64,000 nt of DNA, from the NCBI GenBank assembly GCA_049322615.1, contig JBMORX010000003.1, forward strand, positions 3,328 to 67,327. Direction: 5' to 3'. The translations under genes and the position numbers were made by a program. Each line of letters opens with the position of its first letter. Position 1 is the stretch's first letter. The DNA is from Patescibacteria group bacterium. GTDB taxonomy: Bacteria; Patescibacteriota; Microgenomatia; CAYGWK01. Positions 26,208-32,514 of the stretch are shown in pieces. Under the pieces are notes generated by a model, which was not told the DNA's origin, made no database searches, and saw nothing but the letters and a program-made list of their open reading frames with translations.

Positions 26208-28634
26208 TTAGGAGGGAAGATAAGCTGGGACAAAACCAGCAGGTTTTCTAGGCAAAGAGATTTTCTTTTCTTTTTGCTTAAGAAGGACGACTTTTAAAGC
26301 CTCCCCAAGTTCGGAGACAAAAACAAATTTAATATCTTTTTTAACCTTACTTGGAACATCTTCAAGATCCTTTTTATTTTCTTTCGGCAAAATCAAAACT
26401 TTGAGTCCTGCCCGGTGAGCGGCAATAACTTTTTCTTTAACTCCCCCAATCTCCAAAACCCTGCCCCGAAGAGTAATTTCTCCGGTCATGCCAACATCCC
26501 GACGGGTGGGAATTTTCGTCAAAGCCGAAACCAAAGCTGCCGCCATGGCTATCCCGGCTGATGGTCCGTCCTTGGGCACGGCTCCTTCAGGAACATGAAT
26601 GTGAACATCTAAATTCTTTGAGAAATTTTCTCGAAGACCCAAGGTTTCCCAATGACTTCTGGCAAAAGAAAAAGCTGCCTGAGCTGATTCCTTCATTACT
26701 TCTCCTAAATGTCCGGTTAAGACAAGATTGCCCTTCCCAGGCATCAAAGCCGCCTCAATGAAAAGAATCTCTCCCCCAGCCTCAGTCCAAGCCAGTCCAG
26801 TGGCCATCCCTACCTCATTTTTCTTCTCCGCCAAGGTTGAGGAATATTTCTGCGGACCTAAAAACTTTCGGGTCTCTAGCATATCAATCTCTTCTTTCAC
26901 TCTTTTTCCTTCTGCTTTTTTCTTTGCCACCTTTCGCAAGATTGTCGCGAGCATTCGCTCAAGTTCCCGAACCCCTGCCTCTCTGGTATAGCGGCGAATT
27001 ACCTCATAAAGTGCCCTAGAGGTAATTTTTATTTTCTCTAGACCATGGGCTTTAACCTGCTTTGGCCAAAGAAATTGCCTGCCAATATTAAATTTTTCTT
27101 CTTCGGTATAGCCGGGAAAGCTGATAACTTCAAGTCTATCTCGAAGGGCTGGAGGGACGGTGTCTAAAATATTACCAGTACAAATAAACATTACCTCAGA
27201 TAAATCAAATGGGACCTCAAGATAATGATCAGAGAACTCTTTATTTTGTTCAGGGTCTAAAGCCTCCAGGAGTGCAGCCGATGGGTCGCCCCGAAAATCA
27301 ATTCCGACTTTGTCAATTTCATCAAGCATAAAAACAGGATTTTTGGTCCCGGCGTTTCTCATTCCCTGAATTATTCTGCCCGGTAAAGCGCCAACATAAG
27401 TCCGCCTGTGTCCGCGAATTTCTGCTTCATCTCGAATTCCTCCCAAAGAAATCCGAATAAATTTTCGTCCTAACGCTTTAGCGATTGATTTTCCGATTGA
27501 AGTTTTTCCCACCCCCGGAGGTCCGATAAAACAAAGAATTGAGGGCGTCCCGACTTCCTCCCTCTGCGTTTTTGCGCCCGCAAGAGTTTTGCGTCTTTGC
27601 GTTTTCAGCTTCATCACCGCCAAGTACTCAACTACCCGTTCCTTTACTTTCTTTAAACCATAGTGATCTTGTTCTAAAATCTTGGCTGCTCGACTAATAC
27701 TAGTATTATTTGGGGTTGCTCGAGTCCAAGGCATAGAAGTTATCCAATCAAGCCAGTTTTCAATGTACGGTCGTTCAGGAGACATAGGAGGCATTTGGGC
27801 AAAACGAGAAAGTTCTTTCTCAACTTTTTTTCTCGCCTCCAAAGGCAAACGGGACTGGCGAATTTTTTGTTTGAATTCTCTAACTTGTTCGTCTTCCTCT
27901 CCGCCAAGTTCTCCAAGCTCTTTCTCAATTGTTTTCTTCCGCTCCCGCAAGACTGCTTCTTTCATCTCTTTTTCAAACCGGACTTGGGTTTTAGTGGCAA
28001 TTGAGCGTTCAAGTTCTAAAATTTTGATTTCATGGTTAAGATATTCAGCCACTTTATTAAGCCTCTGGGAAACAACCGCCAAGTCCAAAAGTCCTTGTTT
28101 TTCCTCAGTTTTTAAGTCTAAACTTGAAGCAATTTGGTCAGCCAACTCCGCCGGAGAAACCCCAGAGGAAAGTCTCATTAAAACCATAATATCGATTGGT
28201 TTCCCAAGATTAAAAGCCTTGCGATATTGATTAATTAAATGACTTGACAAAGCCTTAACTTCATCCGATTCCTCGATAATTTCCGGAACTTCACTTACCC
28301 TAACCAAAATAAAGGGGTCGGTTGAGATTACTTCCTCAAGCCTTATCCGACCTACTCCTCGGGCAATTGCCGTGACGCTTCCGTCTATCTCAAGGGTATT
28401 TTCTAAAACAACAAGGGTGCCAATTTGATAAAGATCTTCTTTTCCTGGCTCCACTACCCTTGGGTCTTTCTGGGTAAAGACTGCCAAAAGTCTTTCGGCT
28501 GAACCACTAAAAGCAGCCTTGACGGCACTGTTTGACCGTGGTCGACCAAAAGTAAGAGGGACCTCGGTGTAGGGAAAAACCACACTGTCTCGAAGAGCTA
28601 CTGCAGGAATAATTTTTTCTGATTGGTCTGTCAT
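26208..28634 (-). CDS. lon: ATP-dependent Lon protease
   Basis: It has the Lon N-terminal domain, AAA+ Walker A (GPPGVGKTS) and the C-terminal Ser-Lys protease domain ([20 protein letters not shown]). Confidence 0.9.
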
Positions 28635-28678
28635 AGTGAGTTTAGACTTCGGCTGAGCTCAGTCGAAGCCCCGAACCA

Positions 28679-28705
28679 TTAGCAGTCTATCACATTAATT
28701 GCTAA
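28679..28705. promoter_or_regulatory. CIRCE-like inverted repeat TTAGCA-N15-TGCTAA (TTAGCAGTC-N9-AATTGCTAA) in the lon leader; candidate HrcA operator
   Basis: It has the geometry of the CIRCE consensus TTAGCACTC-N9-GAGTGCTAA. The outer hexamers are perfect and the inner triplets diverge. It lies 45-70 nt upstream of the lon start. Confidence 0.5.
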
Positions 28706-28749
28706 AAAGCAATAGGTATTCGTAACACATCTAAATTCCGCCAGTCTCA

Positions 28750-28832
28750 CACGAATTTACACGAATCTGGCGACCACGTATCTTAGTTCTACCCCAAAAG
28801 GCAGTTTGGTCGCCTCACGAATTAACACGAAT
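28750..28832. promoter_or_regulatory. Two pairs of CACGAAT heptad direct repeats (CACGAAT-TTA-CACGAAT at 28750-28766, CACGAAT-TAA-CACGAAT at 28816-28832) in the lon upstream region
   Basis: I read them directly. The heptad-N3-heptad architecture resembles CtsR-type operators (GGTCAAA-NAN-GGTCAAA), but the sequence differs. Confidence 0.4.
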
Positions 28833-28969
28833 TTTGAGCCACCTTCAAGATGGTGAGGGCACAACTTTTGCGCCGAGTTTAATGTGACAGGGGACGTCTG
28901 ACGTCCCAGGCTTGCGCCATCCGAAAACAGCGCCACCAGACTCCTGGAATCTCTATCTAAGCAAGCCGT

Positions 28970-28988
28970 GTCCCGATTTAATCGGGAC
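28970..28988. terminator. Hairpin GTCCCGAT-TTA-ATCGGGAC downstream of the L,D-transpeptidase gene
   Basis: It is a perfect 8-bp inverted repeat with the same core as 14690 and 49379. Confidence 0.5.
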
Positions 28989-29035
28989 GTCATCTCTAAA
29001 CTCAAGCAACAAGTTCGTGCCCGAACCAAAACAAC

Positions 29036-29692
29036 TCATTCATGAATCACAATCCTTGTTCCGGGATTATCTCCAGTTGCCCTAATAGCGTTTAAAGCAT
29101 CAACCGAAGGGGTTGTCCAGTAAAAGAGTCTCTCTGCTACTGGTGTTGGCAAATTAACACATCCGTGACTCATTGTCCGACCAAAATTATTATGCCAATA
29201 GGTTCCATGAAGCCCAAAACCATTATGAAAATACATGATATAGGGAACATTGGGTAGATAATAATAACTATGGGTACCTTTTTCGCCTCCCTCCATTTTA
29301 GCGTACTTAAACTTGCTCCAGATGCGAAATTCACCGGTAATGGTTGGTGTCCAAGGTTTGCCCGAGGAAATCAAAGTCTCCAGAAAAAGATTATTTCCCT
29401 CCCAGGCGCGAAGTTTTTGTTCGGATAAATCAACCTCAATCCATTTTTCTACCCCGGTTTTCTCACCTAAAACTTTTCTCTCGCTTGGCGAAAGCTCCCA
29501 CCTGGCTAAAGGTGCTTGAATTTTCTTTCCTTCAAAATAGGCTTGGGTCTCCCCAAACTGAAATTCTCCAGTTCCTTGACAATAACAGCCAGGTTTCTCA
29601 AGCAGAAATTTCTGGCTTGAGAAAAATAAAACAAAAACAGCCATAAATAAGGCCGTCGGAAGAAGAATTAAGAAAAAATTTTTCTGTTGCAT
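29036..29692 (-). CDS. L,D-transpeptidase (YkuD family) with an N-terminal membrane anchor
   Basis: It has the catalytic motif SHGCVNLP and an N-terminal TM helix. Confidence 0.75.
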   Translation of the reverse strand: MQQKNFFLILLPTALFMAVFVLFFSSQKFLLEKPGCYCQGTGEFQFGETQAYFEGKKIQAPLARWELSPSERKVLGEKTGVEKWIEVDLSEQKLRAWEGNNLFLETLISSGKPWTPTITGEFRIWSKFKYAKMEGGEKGTHSYYYLPNVPYIMYFHNGFGLHGTYWHNNFGRTMSHGCVNLPTPVAERLFYWTTPSVDALNAIRATGDNPGTRIVIHE

Positions 29693-29773
29693 AAATCCAT
29701 ATTAACATGAAGAATTTTATCTTGACAAGAGGAGTTTTAGGAAATAATTAGGAAATAATAGGATTTTAAGCCA

Positions 29774-29826
29774 CAAAAAAAGCGCCGGGAAAAACGTAGC
29801 AAGTGTCTGCTACACCACGGCGCTCT
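29774..29826 (-). terminator. Rho-independent terminator for the small-ORF pair on the minus strand
   Basis: The minus-strand RNA reads AGCGCCG...(nested GUAGCA/UGCUAC)...CGGCGCU followed by UUUUUUU. Confidence 0.55.
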
Positions 29827-29871
29827 TCTTGCACCATTCGATTTGCGGAAAATTGACCGTATGTCTGCCTC

Positions 29872-30180
29872 CTACTTCTTGACTTCGATCACTTCGCCGT
29901 CTGGACCGGTGATGGTGAGCCTGCGGAGACGCGGATGGGTCTTGAAGTCATTGGCCTCGACGAACTCTTCCAGCGCCTCTCTGGTCATACCACGCACCAC
30001 GATTTCCTCGCTACCACCGTGCATCAACACGAACGCCACCTCCATGAACTCAGGGGGGCGGAAGTTCGCGTCAAGCCTGTAAGGCATCGAAGGGTCGTCG
30101 GCGATGTTTGTGCCGCCGGTTTGATAAATCAGCTTCAGACCAGGAATAACGTCGGACATCTTGTGCCTCCTGTTACTCAT
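29872..30180 (-). CDS. Hypothetical protein (102 aa) in the high-GC segment; second gene of a two-gene cassette
   Basis: The local GC content is about 58 percent. It overlaps the upstream ORF by 8 nt (ATGAGTAA-type overlap). I recognised no family. Confidence 0.4.
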   Translation of the reverse strand: MSNRRHKMSDVIPGLKLIYQTGGTNIADDPSMPYRLDANFRPPEFMEVAFVLMHGGSEEIVVRGMTREALEEFVEANDFKTHPRLRRLTITGPDGEVIEVKK

Positions 30181-30370
30181 TCTCGACTTCGCGCACGATT
30201 TCGAGTCCGTAGTGCTGTGTCAAGATGAACTTGACGAATCCCAACGCGTTTGCGTCGTGCACTCGGACTTCCCACGTTCCGTCAGCTTCCTGAACCGGCA
30301 ACCCCTGAGGGAGCGGCGCAACGAATGAGGCGGGTGTTTGAACAACCAGATGGTCGTCAATTCGCTTCAT
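30173..30370 (-). CDS. Hypothetical protein (65 aa) in the high-GC segment; first gene of the cassette
   Basis: It has the same orientation as, and overlaps, 29872-30180. The size and arrangement resemble a toxin-antitoxin pair, but the family is not recognised. Confidence 0.35.
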   Translation of the reverse strand: MKRIDDHLVVQTPASFVAPLPQGLPVQEADGTWEVRVHDANALGFVKFILTQHYGLEIVREVENE

Positions 30371-30838
30371 TACCTGCGGCGTGGTGTAACCACTACACTA
30401 CCAGGAGGAGCTTTGACGTAGAGCTGATACCACTTACCGAACATGTTTATTCTCCTTTCGATGAGATGATGGACAGATCGTCCAGCTTCCGAATGGATAG
30501 CGCTTTAGACACTAGCGGTAATGCCCAAAGTGCTACCCACTCGGTAAGGAGGTTATATTTATTTCTTCCGACCCGCCAAACGGGTCAGGAACGTTCGACG
30601 TTCCGCAAACTATTAAGGTGCAAGAACAATAAATTACCCTGAATTAAGCAAAAAATAGGTTGCTTTATACCTACCCTTACTTAAATCAATGCCAGAAGTA
30701 TACCATAGAAAAAACAAAAAGTCAATTATTATAGGGTTGGGTGCTGAATTTGGCTATTTTGGTTTTGGAATTTTGGCTTCATTCAGAAGGCGGAGAATTA
30801 GTAAGCGTCCCATCGATATCAAAAATTGCCAGATTCAT

Positions 30839-30912
30839 TGGCTGCCCAGCCTCGATTCGAACGAGGATTAGATGGTCCAGAGCCATCTGGCCTACCGTTA
30901 GCCGACCGGGCA
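30839..30912 (-). tRNA. tRNA-Gln (anticodon CUG), CCA encoded
   Basis: I folded it manually. The acceptor is UGCCCGG/CUGGGCA, the anticodon stem is GAUGG/CCAUC with loop CUCUGGA, the T-arm is CCUCG-UUCGAAU-CGAGG, the discriminator is G and the 3' end is CCA. Confidence 0.75.
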
Positions 30913-30975
30913 ATCAGGCTCAATTTTACCATTTACCACTTGACTAATCAATTTTTCCTATGTCAAAATACGATT

Positions 30976-31239
30976 ATGCTCACCAGAAAAGATTTAAAAG
31001 AGGAAATTGAAATTGCCGTTGCTCATATCAGTCAGGTGCTTACCAAGGCGCTTGCAACTTTGGCGACCAAAGAAGAACTCGCTAAAGTTGAAACGAGACT
31101 TGAGAATATTGAGACAGATGTTAGGGATATCAAAAGAGACGTCAGGGATTTGAAAGCGGACACGCCAACTGCTAAAGAATTTCAAAACCACGAAAAGAGA
31201 ATTACAAACTTAGAAAAACGGTCTTCACTTCTTAATTAG
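30976..31239 (+). CDS. Small coiled-coil protein (paralog of 7611-7901), start at the internal Met
   Basis: It reads MLTRKDLKEEIEIAV... with a heptad-rich tail. The tracked ORF begins inside the tRNA. A TTGACT-N18-CAAAAT promoter-like sequence abuts the ATG. Confidence 0.45.
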   Translation: MLTRKDLKEEIEIAVAHISQVLTKALATLATKEELAKVETRLENIETDVRDIKRDVRDLKADTPTAKEFQNHEKRITNLEKRSSLLN

Positions 31240-32514
31240 AGAAATTACTTCCCGGAGTCGTTTTAGGGTTTTTTCGCGACCGAGAATTTCGACTGAATCA
31301 GTAATTGGAGGAGTTATCTTCGAACCAGCAATGGCGACTCGGAAATTCATAAAAAATTCTCCGGTTTTCCAGCCTTTTTCTTTAACAAGTTCTTGGAGAA
31401 CTTGCTCCAGATTTTTCTTATCCCAGGTTTTTAGTTTTTCTAAAACTTCAAGTGCTAAAGACAACTGTCCTTTGGCATTTTTTTCAAAAAGTTTTTTCTC
31501 AACCTTTGGTTCTTTAAAGAAAAATCCAGCTAAGACAGAATAATCTGAAAGTTTATTTAATCTTTCTTTAACTAACAGGATAGTTTGATTAATTAAAGTG
31601 GGGCTTGCACCTTTCGGAGCAAATGGTTTAATTAATTGAAGTAGCTGGCTATCAGATTTTTTTCTGATATAAACACCGTTTAACCAATCAAGTTTTTGAA
31701 AATTAAAAATTGGGGCAGTGGTCACCACTCTTTCAAAACTAAAAAGTTTTATAAATTCCTCTAAAGAGAAGATATCTTTTTCTTCTGGATGAGACCAGCC
31801 TAAAAGGCTCAAGAAATTAATCAAGGCTTCGGGTAAATAGCCTTGCTCTTGATACCAAGATAAAGCAATTGGGTTTTCTCTTTTTGAGATTTTTGATCGA
31901 TCAGGATTTCTTAGAATTGGCATGTGGGCAAAAATTGGCGGTTTTTCACCTAATGCTTGATAGACCAGGAGCTGACGCGGAGTATTTGAAATATGTTCTT
32001 CGGCTCTGATAACATGGGAAATCTTCATCAGGAGATCATCAACCACACAAGCAAAATTATAAGTTGGAAACCCATCTGATTTTAACAAAACAAAATCCTC
32101 AATATTTTCATTTTTGAAAGAGATTTTTCCTCGAACCAAATCATCCCAAGAAATTTCGCCAGTTTTGGGGACCCGAAGACGAACCGCTCCTTCATCTTCA
32201 AAGGCAAGTTTTTTATTCAAAAGTTTCTGGCAAGTTTTTTGGTACAAAGAAAGACGCTCTGATTGGCGATACGGACCAAAAGGACCACCAATATCGGGTC
32301 CTTCATCATAGAGCAAACCTAGCCATTTTAGACCATCGAAAATTGCCTTCTCCGCTTCAGGAATATGGCGCTTAACATCAGTGTCTTCAATCCGGAGAAT
32401 AAACTTGCCTTTATTTTGGTGGGCAAAAGCAAAATTAAAAAGTGAAATATAAGCAGTCCCAACATGGGCAAAACCCGTTGGCGAAGGAGCAATTCTAACT
32501 CTAACTTTCTTCAT
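31225..32514 (-). CDS. gltX: Glutamyl-tRNA synthetase (short, probably non-discriminating type)
   Basis: It has the HIGH motif (PSPTGFAHVG) and the KMSKS-like KISKR motif. It lies near tRNA-Gln and tRNA-Glu. Confidence 0.85.
   Translation of the reverse strand: MKKVRVRIAPSPTGFAHVGTAYISLFNFAFAHQNKGKFILRIEDTDVKRHIPEAEKAIFDGLKWLGLLYDEGPDIGGPFGPYRQSERLSLYQKTCQKLLNKKLAFEDEGAVRLRVPKTGEISWDDLVRGKISFKNENIEDFVLLKSDGFPTYNFACVVDDLLMKISHVIRAEEHISNTPRQLLVYQALGEKPPIFAHMPILRNPDRSKISKRENPIALSWYQEQGYLPEALINFLSLLGWSHPEEKDIFSLEEFIKLFSFERVVTTAPIFNFQKLDWLNGVYIRKKSDSQLLQLIKPFAPKGASPTLINQTILLVKERLNKLSDYSVLAGFFFKEPKVEKKLFEKNAKGQLSLALEVLEKLKTWDKKNLEQVLQELVKEKGWKTGEFFMNFRVAIAGSKITPPITDSVEILGREKTLKRLREVISLIKK

Follow-up and report, generated by a model that had tools for sequence, protein, structure and literature searches.

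We have analysed a segment of Patescibacteria DNA on the minus strand of a contiguous stretch of 64 kb (hereafter the window). The segment extends from about position 30736 to 29775 (~0.96 kb) and is probably a self-contained, horizontally acquired accessory-gene cassette belonging to a modular family that is met repeatedly in metagenomic contigs of Patescibacteria type; its cargo consists of two unrelated orphan genes that do not form a toxin-antitoxin pair. The cassettes of this family share a 5' module composed of a CCYATAR box, a σ70-type promoter, a terminator-like hairpin, a motif that we call A, and a helix between anti-Shine-Dalgarno (anti-SD) and Shine-Dalgarno (SD) sequences that encloses a hairpin of 23-25 bp. 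The middle part is variable and carries one or a few small genes, and in the 3' module an inverted counterpart of motif A, called A', stands directly 5' of an intrinsic terminator. A search of the literature found no description of the motif or of the cassette, and this kind of gene cassette has apparently not been described before. Patescibacteria (CPR) have tiny genomes that are rich in orphan genes, and to our knowledge little has been learned about how their accessory functions are regulated and exchanged. A searchable framework that marks exchanged cargo would offer a handle on accessory genes in these uncultured bacteria, including genes that may be concerned with anti-phage functions or interaction with hosts.

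Composition and genomic context

The stretch between 29775 and 30640 is the most GC-rich 866-nt piece of the window (52.5% GC against 39.4±3.0%, z=4.4), and its coding part reaches 55.3% GC. The original prediction had described a patch of 58% GC; the excess is genuine, and it is weaker than was claimed, at about 53-55%. GC3 is 0.73 in the cargo gene for a 95-aa protein and 0.64 in that for an 88-aa protein, compared with 0.34±0.03 (maximum 0.42) in 40 host ORFs. The ORFs found between 28500 and 32000 are those of Lon, YkuD, the two cargo proteins, a coiled-coil protein and GluRS. Two long ORFs on the plus strand, opposite the cargo genes, had been set aside as probable artefacts of GC content. 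To regard them as shadows of the real genes is reasonable, and neither has a match in Pfam, NCBIfam or PHROGs.

In two syntenic, Shapirobacteria-like relatives (L079 and L081), the genes for GluRS, tRNA-Gln(CTG), YkuD and Lon are all kept. The interval between the tRNA and YkuD contains other genes in these relatives, with no similarity to the segment and no match to the model of the leader RNA that is described below, and similarity to the relatives of the host picks up again only at 29711. The segment is therefore a lineage-specific acquisition, and its horizontal origin, as first proposed, is borne out both by this absence and by the foreign GC3 of the two genes. An abrupt shift of composition in a metagenome-assembled genome might also reflect an assembly chimera, in which a fragment from an organism of higher GC was joined into the contig. 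This explanation is scarcely credible here, since the AT-rich promoter, leader and terminator form one coherent unit with the GC-rich genes, the same architecture, again with GC above that of the flanks, recurs in dozens of independent assemblies, and the synteny of the host continues unbroken to either side.

The gene for tRNA-Gln(CTG) (30839-30912, minus strand) was predicted by ARAGORN, scores 51 bits against the Rfam tRNA model, and occupies the same syntenic place in L079 and L081. It is a host neighbour gene and a landmark that lies outside the cassette. The GC-rich patch had been thought to abut this tRNA; in fact ~210 nt of AT-rich DNA lie between the tRNA 3' end (30839) and the GC-rich part, and about 100 nt between that end and the promoter box of the cassette (30736).

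The segment might be what is left of a prophage, or of a genomic island mobilized by an integrase, that inserted at the tRNA-Gln 3' end, an origin that would account for the hypervariability of the tRNA-Gln-YkuD interval among relatives. It would also fit a homologue of the 88-aa protein that adjoins a tyrosine integrase in L005, and the phage-like nature of part of the cargo of the family (Tad4 and PHROG members). We nevertheless consider it improbable, both as an account of the segment and as the tRNA-targeted mechanism suggested earlier. No recombinase, whether a tyrosine or a serine integrase, was found among the ORFs at 28500-32000. The 21-nt 3' end of tRNA-Gln occurs only once in the window with up to 3 mismatches allowed, so that the direct repeats looked for are found nowhere in it, and a repeat scan gave nothing relevant. 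The gap of ~100 nt between tRNA and cassette argues against such an insertion as well, as does IMG/VR, in which neither protein has a relative and the exact motif core is absent. Among roughly 40 cassette loci, a tRNA lies upstream of only about 4, and association with tRNAs was accordingly rejected as a trait of the cassette family.

A 14-nt direct repeat, GAATTAAG[A/C]AAAAA (at 29665 and 30641), was considered separately as an att site and rejected because one of its copies lies inside the YkuD coding sequence; it is probably a chance match in AT-rich DNA.

Cargo genes

Cargo gene 1 (30173-30444, minus strand) encodes a member of an orphan family of 85-89 aa and is frameshifted in the window, as judged from 14 homologues (77-105 aa, mostly 85-89) and from repair of the reading frame. 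The 65-aa ORF at 30173-30370 corresponds to the C-terminal three quarters of the 88-aa product. A tandem duplication of 5 nt (TAGTG-TAGTG, 30391-30400) puts the first 24 codons (30444-30373) out of frame with the rest. Deletion of 5 nt in silico restores an 88-aa protein with 90% identity to P0121, for which an AF2 model (pLDDT 94) predicts a ferredoxin-like fold; public protein sets do not contain the 65-aa form. From its sequence, cargo gene 1 would appear to be inactivated or split by the duplication.

Cargo gene 2 (29872-30159, minus strand) encodes an orphan protein of 95 aa. Its homologues and the public annotation place the start at M8 of the 102-aa ORF, and an AGGAGG ribosome-binding site is found at 30166-30171. 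The 95-aa protein is identical to MFZ5365938.1 and contains the motifs GGSEEIVV and HPRLRRLTITGPDG. Its family comprises 125 clusters at 90% identity and at least 254 at 50%, the latter number coming from a profile search over 1.84 billion representatives. Nearly all members are stand-alone proteins, and the longer ones contain no Pfam domain. The ORFs of 65 and 102 aa with an 8-nt overlap that had been reported are indeed present on the minus strand (30173-30370 and 29872-30180); the overlap is an artefact of choosing the longest ORF. The genes themselves are co-oriented and 13 nt apart, with one promoter before them and one terminator after them. Neither protein has a match in Pfam, NCBIfam, PADLOC, PHROGs or PDB sequence profiles, and the 95-aa protein matched no family, PDB entry or fold.

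Elsewhere the two families are not linked. The 88-aa family is found in four independent contexts (L005, L006/7, L008, L083/84), never with the 95-aa family adjacent to it, and the 95-aa family in eight (L001, L002-4/L013, L009/10, L011, L012, L076, L077, L078), never next to the 88-aa family; monocistronic units are found for each as well (L076, L083). These distributions bear on the original prediction of a type II toxin-antitoxin or addiction cassette from a high-GC donor. The close spacing and common orientation of two small genes, their shared promoter and terminator, and their foreign composition are what such a cassette would have. Since the pairing is not kept in any of about 12 other contexts, and since family searches that included toxin-antitoxin families matched no toxin or antitoxin, the proposal is unsupported; the frameshift in the upstream gene also counts against it, as do predicted folds unlike those of known toxins and antitoxins. 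We regard it as very unlikely, and the cassette interpretation replaces it with a testable alternative.

Promoter and leader RNA

The 5' limit of likeness to other cassettes is the box CCCTATAAT (30728-30736, minus strand), directly 5' of the -35 hexamer; similarity between the window and L070, for example, runs from 30735 to 30601. A CCYATAR box is found at this place in 22 of 29 unique cassettes. The promoter itself, TTGACT-17 nt-TATACT with a TG-extended -10 (30697-30725, minus strand), is of the σ70 type and was located by a consensus scan (10/12 matches). When the region from -125 to -80 relative to motif A was searched, a -35 hexamer TTGAC(T/A), or TTGATT in one case, was found 5' of the motif in 24 of the 29 cassettes, with scored promoters at -93 to -110. 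Between promoter and motif A the transcript is predicted to fold into a terminator-like hairpin, GGTAGGT...ACCTA followed by U6 (30650-30675, minus strand), that is possibly an attenuator. A T-run occurs at the same position in 22 of 29 cassettes, and it lies within a 5' module that is common to loci with unrelated flanks.

The conserved leader as a whole (30442-30627, minus strand) scores 96.8 bits against covariance model R1, which has no other match in the 64 kb. Its parts, all on the minus strand, are an anti-SD sequence CCTCCTT (30546-30552), a long hairpin (30489-30544), a small hairpin (30471-30483) and an SD sequence AAGGAG (30452-30457). The predicted fold of 30441-30700 has a z-score of -7.9. 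A search of Rfam 15 returned tRNAs only, with nothing relevant in 29600-31000 at E≤10.

The long hairpin shows strong covariation. Paired cells amount to 91.3% of the total, compared with 34-45% in slid controls, no shuffle out of 500 was as good, and 22 of the 23 pairs have changes on both sides. At four positions the pair seen most often is G·U, and the hairpin is therefore strand-specific. Cognate anti-SD:SD pairs have an energy of -10.8 kcal/mol, as against -8.3 kcal/mol for cross pairs (p=1.4e-4). The window copy has an anti-SD/SD helix of only 6 bp, and this pairing is absent from the minimum free energy (MFE) structure of the whole transcript. Sense-strand covariation of a hairpin and pairing of the SD with an anti-SD, the features by which a generic cis-regulatory, SD-sequestering leader RNA is recognized, are thus both found in this family, and the inventory of bacterial cis-regulators would gain a structured, strongly covarying leader.

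Two further hairpins, GGAACGT-CGA-ACGTTCC (30588-30604) and GACCCG-TTTGG-CGGGTC (30570-30586), are predicted by folding just 3' of motif A (30570-30604, minus strand). They had been pointed out before as hairpins near the tRNA; both exist, and the setting to which they belong is the conserved 5' module, found in >40 other metagenomic loci. The two hairpins are a lineage-specific insertion into the leader. Most leaders are without them; in L030 a comparable insertion occupies this position.

Motifs A and A' and the terminator

Motif A, TTCTTGCACC-TTAATAG-TTTGCGGAA (30601-30626, minus strand), has 2 copies in the window where 0 are expected by chance. The core of the motif in the family is TTGCAC-N-TTAA-N4-TTGCGGAA (TTGCAC-N9-TTGCGGAA), and the exact core was found in 62 metagenome stretches; L076 has a variant, TTGTTC. 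Because the search pattern itself dictated the core in all 26 aligned leaders, the invariance of the core is not independent evidence. The possibility that motif A is itself a promoter (σ70, σ54, σ28 or ECF) was rejected by eye, the spacing being unfit and no -10 element following it. Such a role is also unnecessary because a canonical σ70 promoter lies at a fixed distance upstream.

Motif A', TTCTTGCACC-ATTCGA-TTTGCGGAA (29826-29850, plus strand), is an inverted, degenerate form of motif A and is located 3' of the stop codon of cargo gene 2 and 5' of the terminator. The same element, TTCCGCAA-N(6-10)-(G)TGCAAG, stands directly 5' of the terminator in at least 18 further cassettes. The 3' end of the cassette is an intrinsic terminator consisting of a compound hairpin followed by U7 (29775-29826, minus strand). 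This agrees with the distal terminator originally proposed: the stem AGAGCGCCG/CGGCGCU, an inner hairpin and the U7 run are all present, and the stretch 29760-29875 folds with a ΔG of -41 kcal/mol (z -3.4). A simple terminator scan missed it because its loop is long.

The two motifs are well suited to pair with each other. Duplexes of A and A' have a mean energy of -27.5 kcal/mol, compared with -11.4 kcal/mol for control windows, and in the MFE structure of the whole window transcript A is paired with A', mostly with pair probabilities of 0.8-1.0. When the strands were compared, pairing was stronger in the sense than in the antisense orientation in 12 of 19 cassettes (Wilcoxon p=0.058; G·U 35 vs 26). 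Strand specificity is not established by this result, so that A and A' could act as inverted repeats in DNA. Nor does pairing alone explain why the core of the motif is held, the core being fixed here by the search pattern.

If A and A' were DNA recombination sites, the cassette could be a mobile insertion cassette bounded by inverted repeats, or an invertible or exchangeable segment, served by a recombinase or transposase in trans. The motifs do bracket the leader and the cargo, both half-sites of A' are kept though the spacer varies between 6 and 10 nt, and several breakpoints of homology between cassettes coincide with the inner edge of A (+27 to +40) or, in the L021 family, with A'; these points, like the outcome of the strand test, speak for the explanation. 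Similarity between cassettes, however, reaches 60-500 nt outside A and continues past A' through the terminator, which leaves the repeats in internal positions. Motif A must be transcribed, since the promoter upstream of it is conserved in position, and the 3' modules contain small hairpins whose GNRA loops are typical of RNA. No target-site duplication was found flanking 29826 or 30626, and no nearby transposase or recombinase and no copies in inverted orientation were seen. We think it unlikely that A and A' are recombination sites of this sort.

Recurrence of the cassette and exchange of cargo

The leader model R1 detects cassettes beyond its training set (L076 with 82 bits, L006 with 81, L008 with 65), and at a score of 46 bits or more it finds 36 metagenome loci, the training loci included. 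The metagenomes were scanned with an exact pattern, and the apparent size and variability of the family are therefore biased. The hairpin is missing in about 10 of the 62 exact-motif matches, which may be chance matches. In almost all loci the GC content of the cassette is higher than that of its flanks.

The same 5' and 3' modules, at 80-92% identity, enclose non-homologous cargo in L025/L044, in L021/L040/L063/L066, in L056/L072/L011 and in L018/L074. L021 and L063 are orthologous loci (87% identity, 2 kb flank) that differ in their cargo. The window cassette is itself a mosaic, with its nearest hairpin in L032, the nearest relative of its 88-aa gene in L006 and that of its 95-aa gene in L076. 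Cargo at other loci includes a homologue of the anti-Thoeris protein Tad4 (88 bits), a Macro domain, membrane proteins, lipoproteins and several PHROG families. We identified no gene for mobility, no duplicated target and no junction of an empty site.

From this anatomy we infer how the cassette may be expressed and how it may move between genomes. Transcription would begin at the cassette's own promoter and pass through a leaky terminator in the leader, the transcription start site, the read-through and the 3' end all being predictions. Translation would be gated by sequestration of the SD sequence. Pairing of A with A' would bring the 5' leader, beyond the attenuator, to the 3' end of the mRNA, and may affect stability or processing. 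The conserved modules could serve as portable homology arms between which cargo is swapped from genome to genome, and the cargo proteins would act in interaction with phages or hosts and not in housekeeping.

We suggest tentatively, as a possibility short of our favoured expectation, that Patescibacteria have an undescribed 'RNA-framed' cassette system. Its framework, with a conserved promoter, an attenuator and a leader on one side and a complementary 3' end on the other, would be at once a closed, translationally gated mRNA bound by a dedicated factor and a recombination scaffold that shuffles small accessory genes, among them anti-defence genes (Tad4-like, Macro). Such a system would be functionally analogous to integron cassettes, though made from different parts. 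A dedicated factor recognizing the mRNA would explain the constancy of the core TTGCAC...TTGCGGAA.

Comparison with known systems

Lambdoid phage genomes contain 'morons', units of promoter, gene and terminator that have been inserted among resident genes and are autonomous. Like these, the cassette is a small, independent transcription unit that has a promoter and an intrinsic terminator of its own, an atypical composition and accessory cargo, and its presence varies among close relatives. Unlike them it lies between housekeeping genes and not in a prophage, and its conserved, structured leader, its pair of inverted motifs and its conserved 3' elements recur in many genomes with different cargo.

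The mRNAs of type I toxins of the hok/AapA1 type combine a 5'-3' fold-back with SD sequestration. The cassette transcript resembles them in the predicted pairing of its leader with the extreme 3' end, by the terminator, and in an SD that would be locked in a helix. It differs in that most cassette cargo is no small hydrophobic toxin and no antisense RNA gene was identified. With MICs and MITEs the cassette shares the plan of a unit without a transposase that carries passenger genes between inverted repeats, whereas its repeats lie within conserved modules, a target-site duplication is lacking, and none of the known IS ends was established as a match.

Putative mobile promoters, or promoter propagation, are represented by highly similar 5' regulatory regions before unrelated genes (Matus-Garcia et al. 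2012, PMC3488235). The cassettes likewise have such 5' regions ahead of unrelated genes. They differ in sharing more than a promoter, namely a promoter, an attenuator-like hairpin and an SD-sequestering leader of ~280 nt together with a matching 3' module, and also in the exchange across genomes of the cargo between the modules.

Integron cassettes are similar in being short and mostly single-gene, in their diverse, mostly orphan cargo, in an imperfect inverted-repeat element and in the swapping of cargo at a fixed framework. Unlike them, the window cassette has no intI nearby, has its own promoter, and carries a conserved hairpin with conserved primary sequence 5' of the ORF, in which inspection by eye showed no R''/R' GTTRRRY core. 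The family would offer a natural form of cassette exchange without integron machinery. The cassettes are not arrayed: there is one leader per locus (52 loci), with rare second, weak matches.

Base composition and genomic position

This region is best read as a self-contained accessory-gene cassette of ~0.96 kb (30736 to 29775, minus strand) that was acquired horizontally and belongs to a modular family found at other loci (loci and contigs compared with the window are designated L001-L084). The interval 29775-30640 is the most GC-rich 866-nt segment of the window, at 52.5% against 39.4±3.0% elsewhere (z=4.4; window mean 39.6%). The compositional shift noted in the original prediction is thus real, and the 58% GC given there was too high. 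The tRNA-Gln(CTG) gene lies on the minus strand at 30839-30912 (ARAGORN; 51 bits in a local Rfam scan). Since its 3' end is at 30839, ~210 nt away, the GC-rich part does not abut the tRNA as had been supposed, and no direct repeat of the tRNA 3' end was found in the window. At gathering threshold, the Rfam scan of the whole window missed this tRNA (51 bits locally versus a cutoff of 29), presumably a filter effect and a caution for relying on such scans.

The GC content at third codon positions is 0.73 in the 95-aa gene carried by the segment and 0.64 in the 65-aa part of the gene upstream of it, while 40 long host ORFs have 0.34±0.03, with a maximum of 0.42. Two syntenic host relatives, L079 and L081 (one labelled Candidatus Shapirobacteria), encode YkuD proteins 79% and 74% identical to that of the window, and both keep the order GluRS, Trp-repressor-like gene, tRNA-Gln(CTG), variable interval, YkuD, Lon. 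The variable interval contains four unrelated low-GC genes in L079 and one DUF4405 gene in L081; neither locus has any similarity to the window segment or any match to the leader model described below. Because the relatives keep the gene order but differ between tRNA-Gln and YkuD, and because the codon composition is atypical, the segment is a lineage-specific acquisition in a hypervariable spot 3' of tRNA-Gln, which bears out the horizontal origin first suggested. No integrase was found near the window segment, and only ~4 of 40 cassette loci are located downstream of a tRNA. Cassettes are richer in GC than their flanks at almost every locus (for example 0.49 versus 0.37, and 0.47 versus 0.32), and the anomaly in the window is therefore a property of the family.

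An 87-aa coiled-coil ORF with weak, sub-threshold matches to DUF2730 and phage XhlA occupies 30976-31239 (plus strand), between tRNA-Gln and GluRS. L079 and L081 have the Trp-repressor-like gene in its place, and variability thus extends to the GluRS side of the tRNA. A perfect 11-nt tandem repeat (TTAGGAAATAA, two copies) occupies 29737-29758, where a short spacer separates the cassette terminator from the YkuD promoter.

Cargo genes

The two predicted minus-strand ORFs, 29872-30180 (102 aa) and 30173-30370 (65 aa), are present as listed. Homologues of the 102-aa ORF form 125 clusters (45-82% identity), none of which is named or has a Pfam domain; in the homologues and in the public annotation (MFZ5365938.1, 'Patescibacteria group bacterium') the gene starts at M8, behind an AGGAGG site, and thus encodes 95 aa (29872-30159, minus strand). 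The 65-aa ORF has 14 homologues of 77-105 aa, mostly 85-89 aa, whose N-terminal 23 residues (MxGKWYQLYVKAPxGxGYTTPxA) are encoded in a different frame at 30444-30373. This gene is broken by a 5-nt tandem duplication (TAGTG/TAGTG, 30391-30400), and removal of 5 nt yields an intact 88-aa protein 90% identical to P0121. Neither the 65-aa nor the 102-aa form occurs in public protein sets; given the M8 start and the frameshift, the reported 8-nt overlap is therefore an artefact of choosing the longest ORFs. Neither cargo protein matches Pfam, NCBIfam, PHROGs, PADLOC or PDB sequences. A profile search of 1.84 billion representatives extended the 95-aa family to 254 clusters, nearly all stand-alone proteins of 90-125 aa, and the longer members show no added Pfam domain. 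The window cargo is two orphan proteins, one of them disrupted.

The size and order of these ORFs had suggested a type II toxin-antitoxin or addiction cassette. This reading is rejected because the two families are unlinked elsewhere, neither resembles a toxin or antitoxin family, and the upstream gene is frameshifted. The gene after the closest 88-aa homologue (L006/L007) is an unrelated one of 97 aa, and that after the L008 homologue an unrelated one of 85 aa. The L005 homologue lies 3' of a tyrosine integrase, among a series of small genes, and the L083 homologue forms a monocistronic unit. Across L001, L002-4/L013, L009/10, L011, L012, L076, L077 and L078, the 88-aa gene never adjoins the 95-aa homologue.

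At L005:4019-5270, the homologue directly after the integrase heads more than 12 small unannotated genes in a region that looks like a prophage or integrative element. In L002 (2080-3152) and L003, a 95-aa-family homologue is preceded, at a distance of 2-3 kb, by an IS200/IS605-type Y1 transposase and a GIY-YIG gene, beside tRNA-Leu. Outside cassettes as well, the 95-aa family tends to exceed its surroundings in GC; the homologue at L077:452-742 (62% GC within a 44% GC contig) has an ordinary σ70 promoter, is without the leader and lies beside a GP88-family gene.

The conserved 5' module

The 200 nt preceding the 88-aa gene have a far more stable fold than shuffled sequences (z=-7.9). They include a bipartite motif, A (TTCTTGCACC-N7-TTTGCGGAA, 30626-30601, minus strand), of which an inverted copy, A', is found at 29826-29850, between the 95-aa stop codon and the terminator; 0 such copies are expected by chance. 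The core of A (TTGCAC-N-TTAA-N4-TTGCGGAA) is also present 5' of the L008 and L011 homologues. Scanning for the exact pattern gave 62 JGI metagenome stretches, of which, by our rough estimate for an 18-base pattern in such a collection, on the order of ten could be chance matches, and no IMG/VR sequence. About ten of the 62 are without downstream leader elements. The remainder have, in order after the motif, an anti-SD-like CTCCT, a 23-25-bp hairpin with conserved arms (GAGUGGGUAGC...GCUAUCCAUUC), and an AGGAG Shine-Dalgarno sequence with the start codon. The family was seeded with the exact motif pattern, and most metagenome loci have no taxonomic assignment.

Paired cells make up 91.3% of the hairpin alignment, against 34-45% with slid partners, and 22 of 23 pairs show changes on both sides; none of 500 shuffles did as well. 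At four positions the pair seen most often is G·U or U·G, which assigns the structure to the sense strand. The anti-SD and SD flanks covary (in L063, UACGCACUCCUU with AAGGAGUGUGUA), and duplexes between cognate partners are more stable than cross pairs (p=1.4e-4). A covariance model trained on 26 leaders has its sole match within the 64 kb at the window leader (96.8 bits). Outside the training set it scores 82 bits in L076, directly upstream of an 80%-identical 95-aa homologue; 81 bits in L006, whose cassette includes a 99-aa gene and a 92%-identical 88-aa homologue, among others; 65 bits in L008; and 30 bits in L009/10. Counting training loci, 36 metagenome loci score at least 46 bits; Rfam 15 contains nothing comparable. 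The two short tRNA-proximal hairpins fold as originally described, and are a lineage-specific insertion directly after motif A, with a similar one in L030.

A σ70-type promoter is predicted ~95-105 nt upstream of motif A, so that the motif would be transcribed. Among 29 unique cassettes, 24 have the -35 hexamer TTGAC(T/A) (TTGATT in one), 19 the full promoter with a 17-nt spacer and -10 element, 22 a preceding CCYATAR box, and 22 a hairpin and T-run between promoter and motif. On the minus strand of the window these are the box CCCTATAAT (30736-30728), the predicted promoter TTGACT-17-TATACT (30725-30697) and the hairpin GGTAGGU...ACCUA-U6 (30675-30650). The last is ruled out as the terminator of a neighbouring gene, since it belongs to the conserved module; its position would be that of an attenuator.

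The 3' module

The distal intrinsic terminator folds as predicted. At least 18 further cassettes have TTCCGCAA-N(6-10)-(G)TGCAAG directly before such a terminator, and this A' element often follows small hairpins with GNRA loops. The A:A' duplexes average -27.5 kcal/mol, versus a mean of -11.4 and a best value of -25.1 in 1345 control windows from the same cassettes, and in the whole-transcript fold of the window A pairs with A' at probabilities mostly of 0.8-1.0. Some substitutions (GUGUAA, CCGCGA, CGUAAG) preserve sense-strand pairing via G·U. Pairing favours the sense strand in 12 of 19 cassettes (p=0.058; G·U counts 35 versus 26), which does not separate the strands; A and A' may therefore work at the RNA level, in a closed 5'-3' stalk, or at the DNA level, as inverted repeats. 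Past the cassette terminator, L021 (2200-2330), L040 (7390-7510) and L063 (1370-1490) have a second, very long near-perfect hairpin of ~100 nt, as well as 25-nt sequences that recur in inverted orientation at other places on their contigs, a further conserved structured or repeated element.

Modularity and cargo exchange

Several groups of loci (L025/L044; L021/L040/L063/L066; L056/L072/L011/L035; L018/L074) share 5' and 3' modules at 80-92% identity around unrelated cargo, and L021 and L063 are orthologous loci (87% identity over a 2 kb flank) with different cargo. Homology breaks in several cases just past A (+27 to +40), and also at A' in the L021 group. Mosaicism extends to the window cassette itself, whose hairpin is nearest to L032 (86%), whose 88-aa gene is nearest to L006 (82%) and whose 95-aa gene is nearest to L076 (78%). 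The sequence resembles other cassettes from 30735 onwards and host relatives again from 29711.

These features suggest that the cassette would fire from its own predicted promoter through a leaky leader terminator, with translation gated by SD sequestration around the leader hairpin, which a factor probably recognises. Pairing of A with A' would close the transcript, or alternatively mark a recombination site, and the conserved modules could supply homology for cargo swapping. Neither Rfam nor the literature searches yielded an account of this framework. Phage morons, mobile promoters (PMC3488235), integron cassettes and hok-type fold-back mRNAs come nearest in concept; none fits the cassette fully.

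Cargo elsewhere includes small membrane proteins, lipoproteins, a cold-shock protein, a Cys-rich DnaJ-type protein and members of 23 PHROG families. Anti-defence genes may be among the cargo of some cassettes: the 232-aa cargo protein of L072 (7195-7893) matches Pfam Tad4, a type I Thoeris inhibitor (88 bits, cutoff 25), and that of L056 has a Macro domain. L011 (CAYIWI010000003.1) is labelled 'uncultured Gammaproteobacteria' but includes a cassette together with a DUF3800 gene and CPR-like neighbours, and contigs L017 and L033 from the 0.1-µm fraction of Hainich groundwater are identical to it; the record is probably mis-binned or mislabelled.
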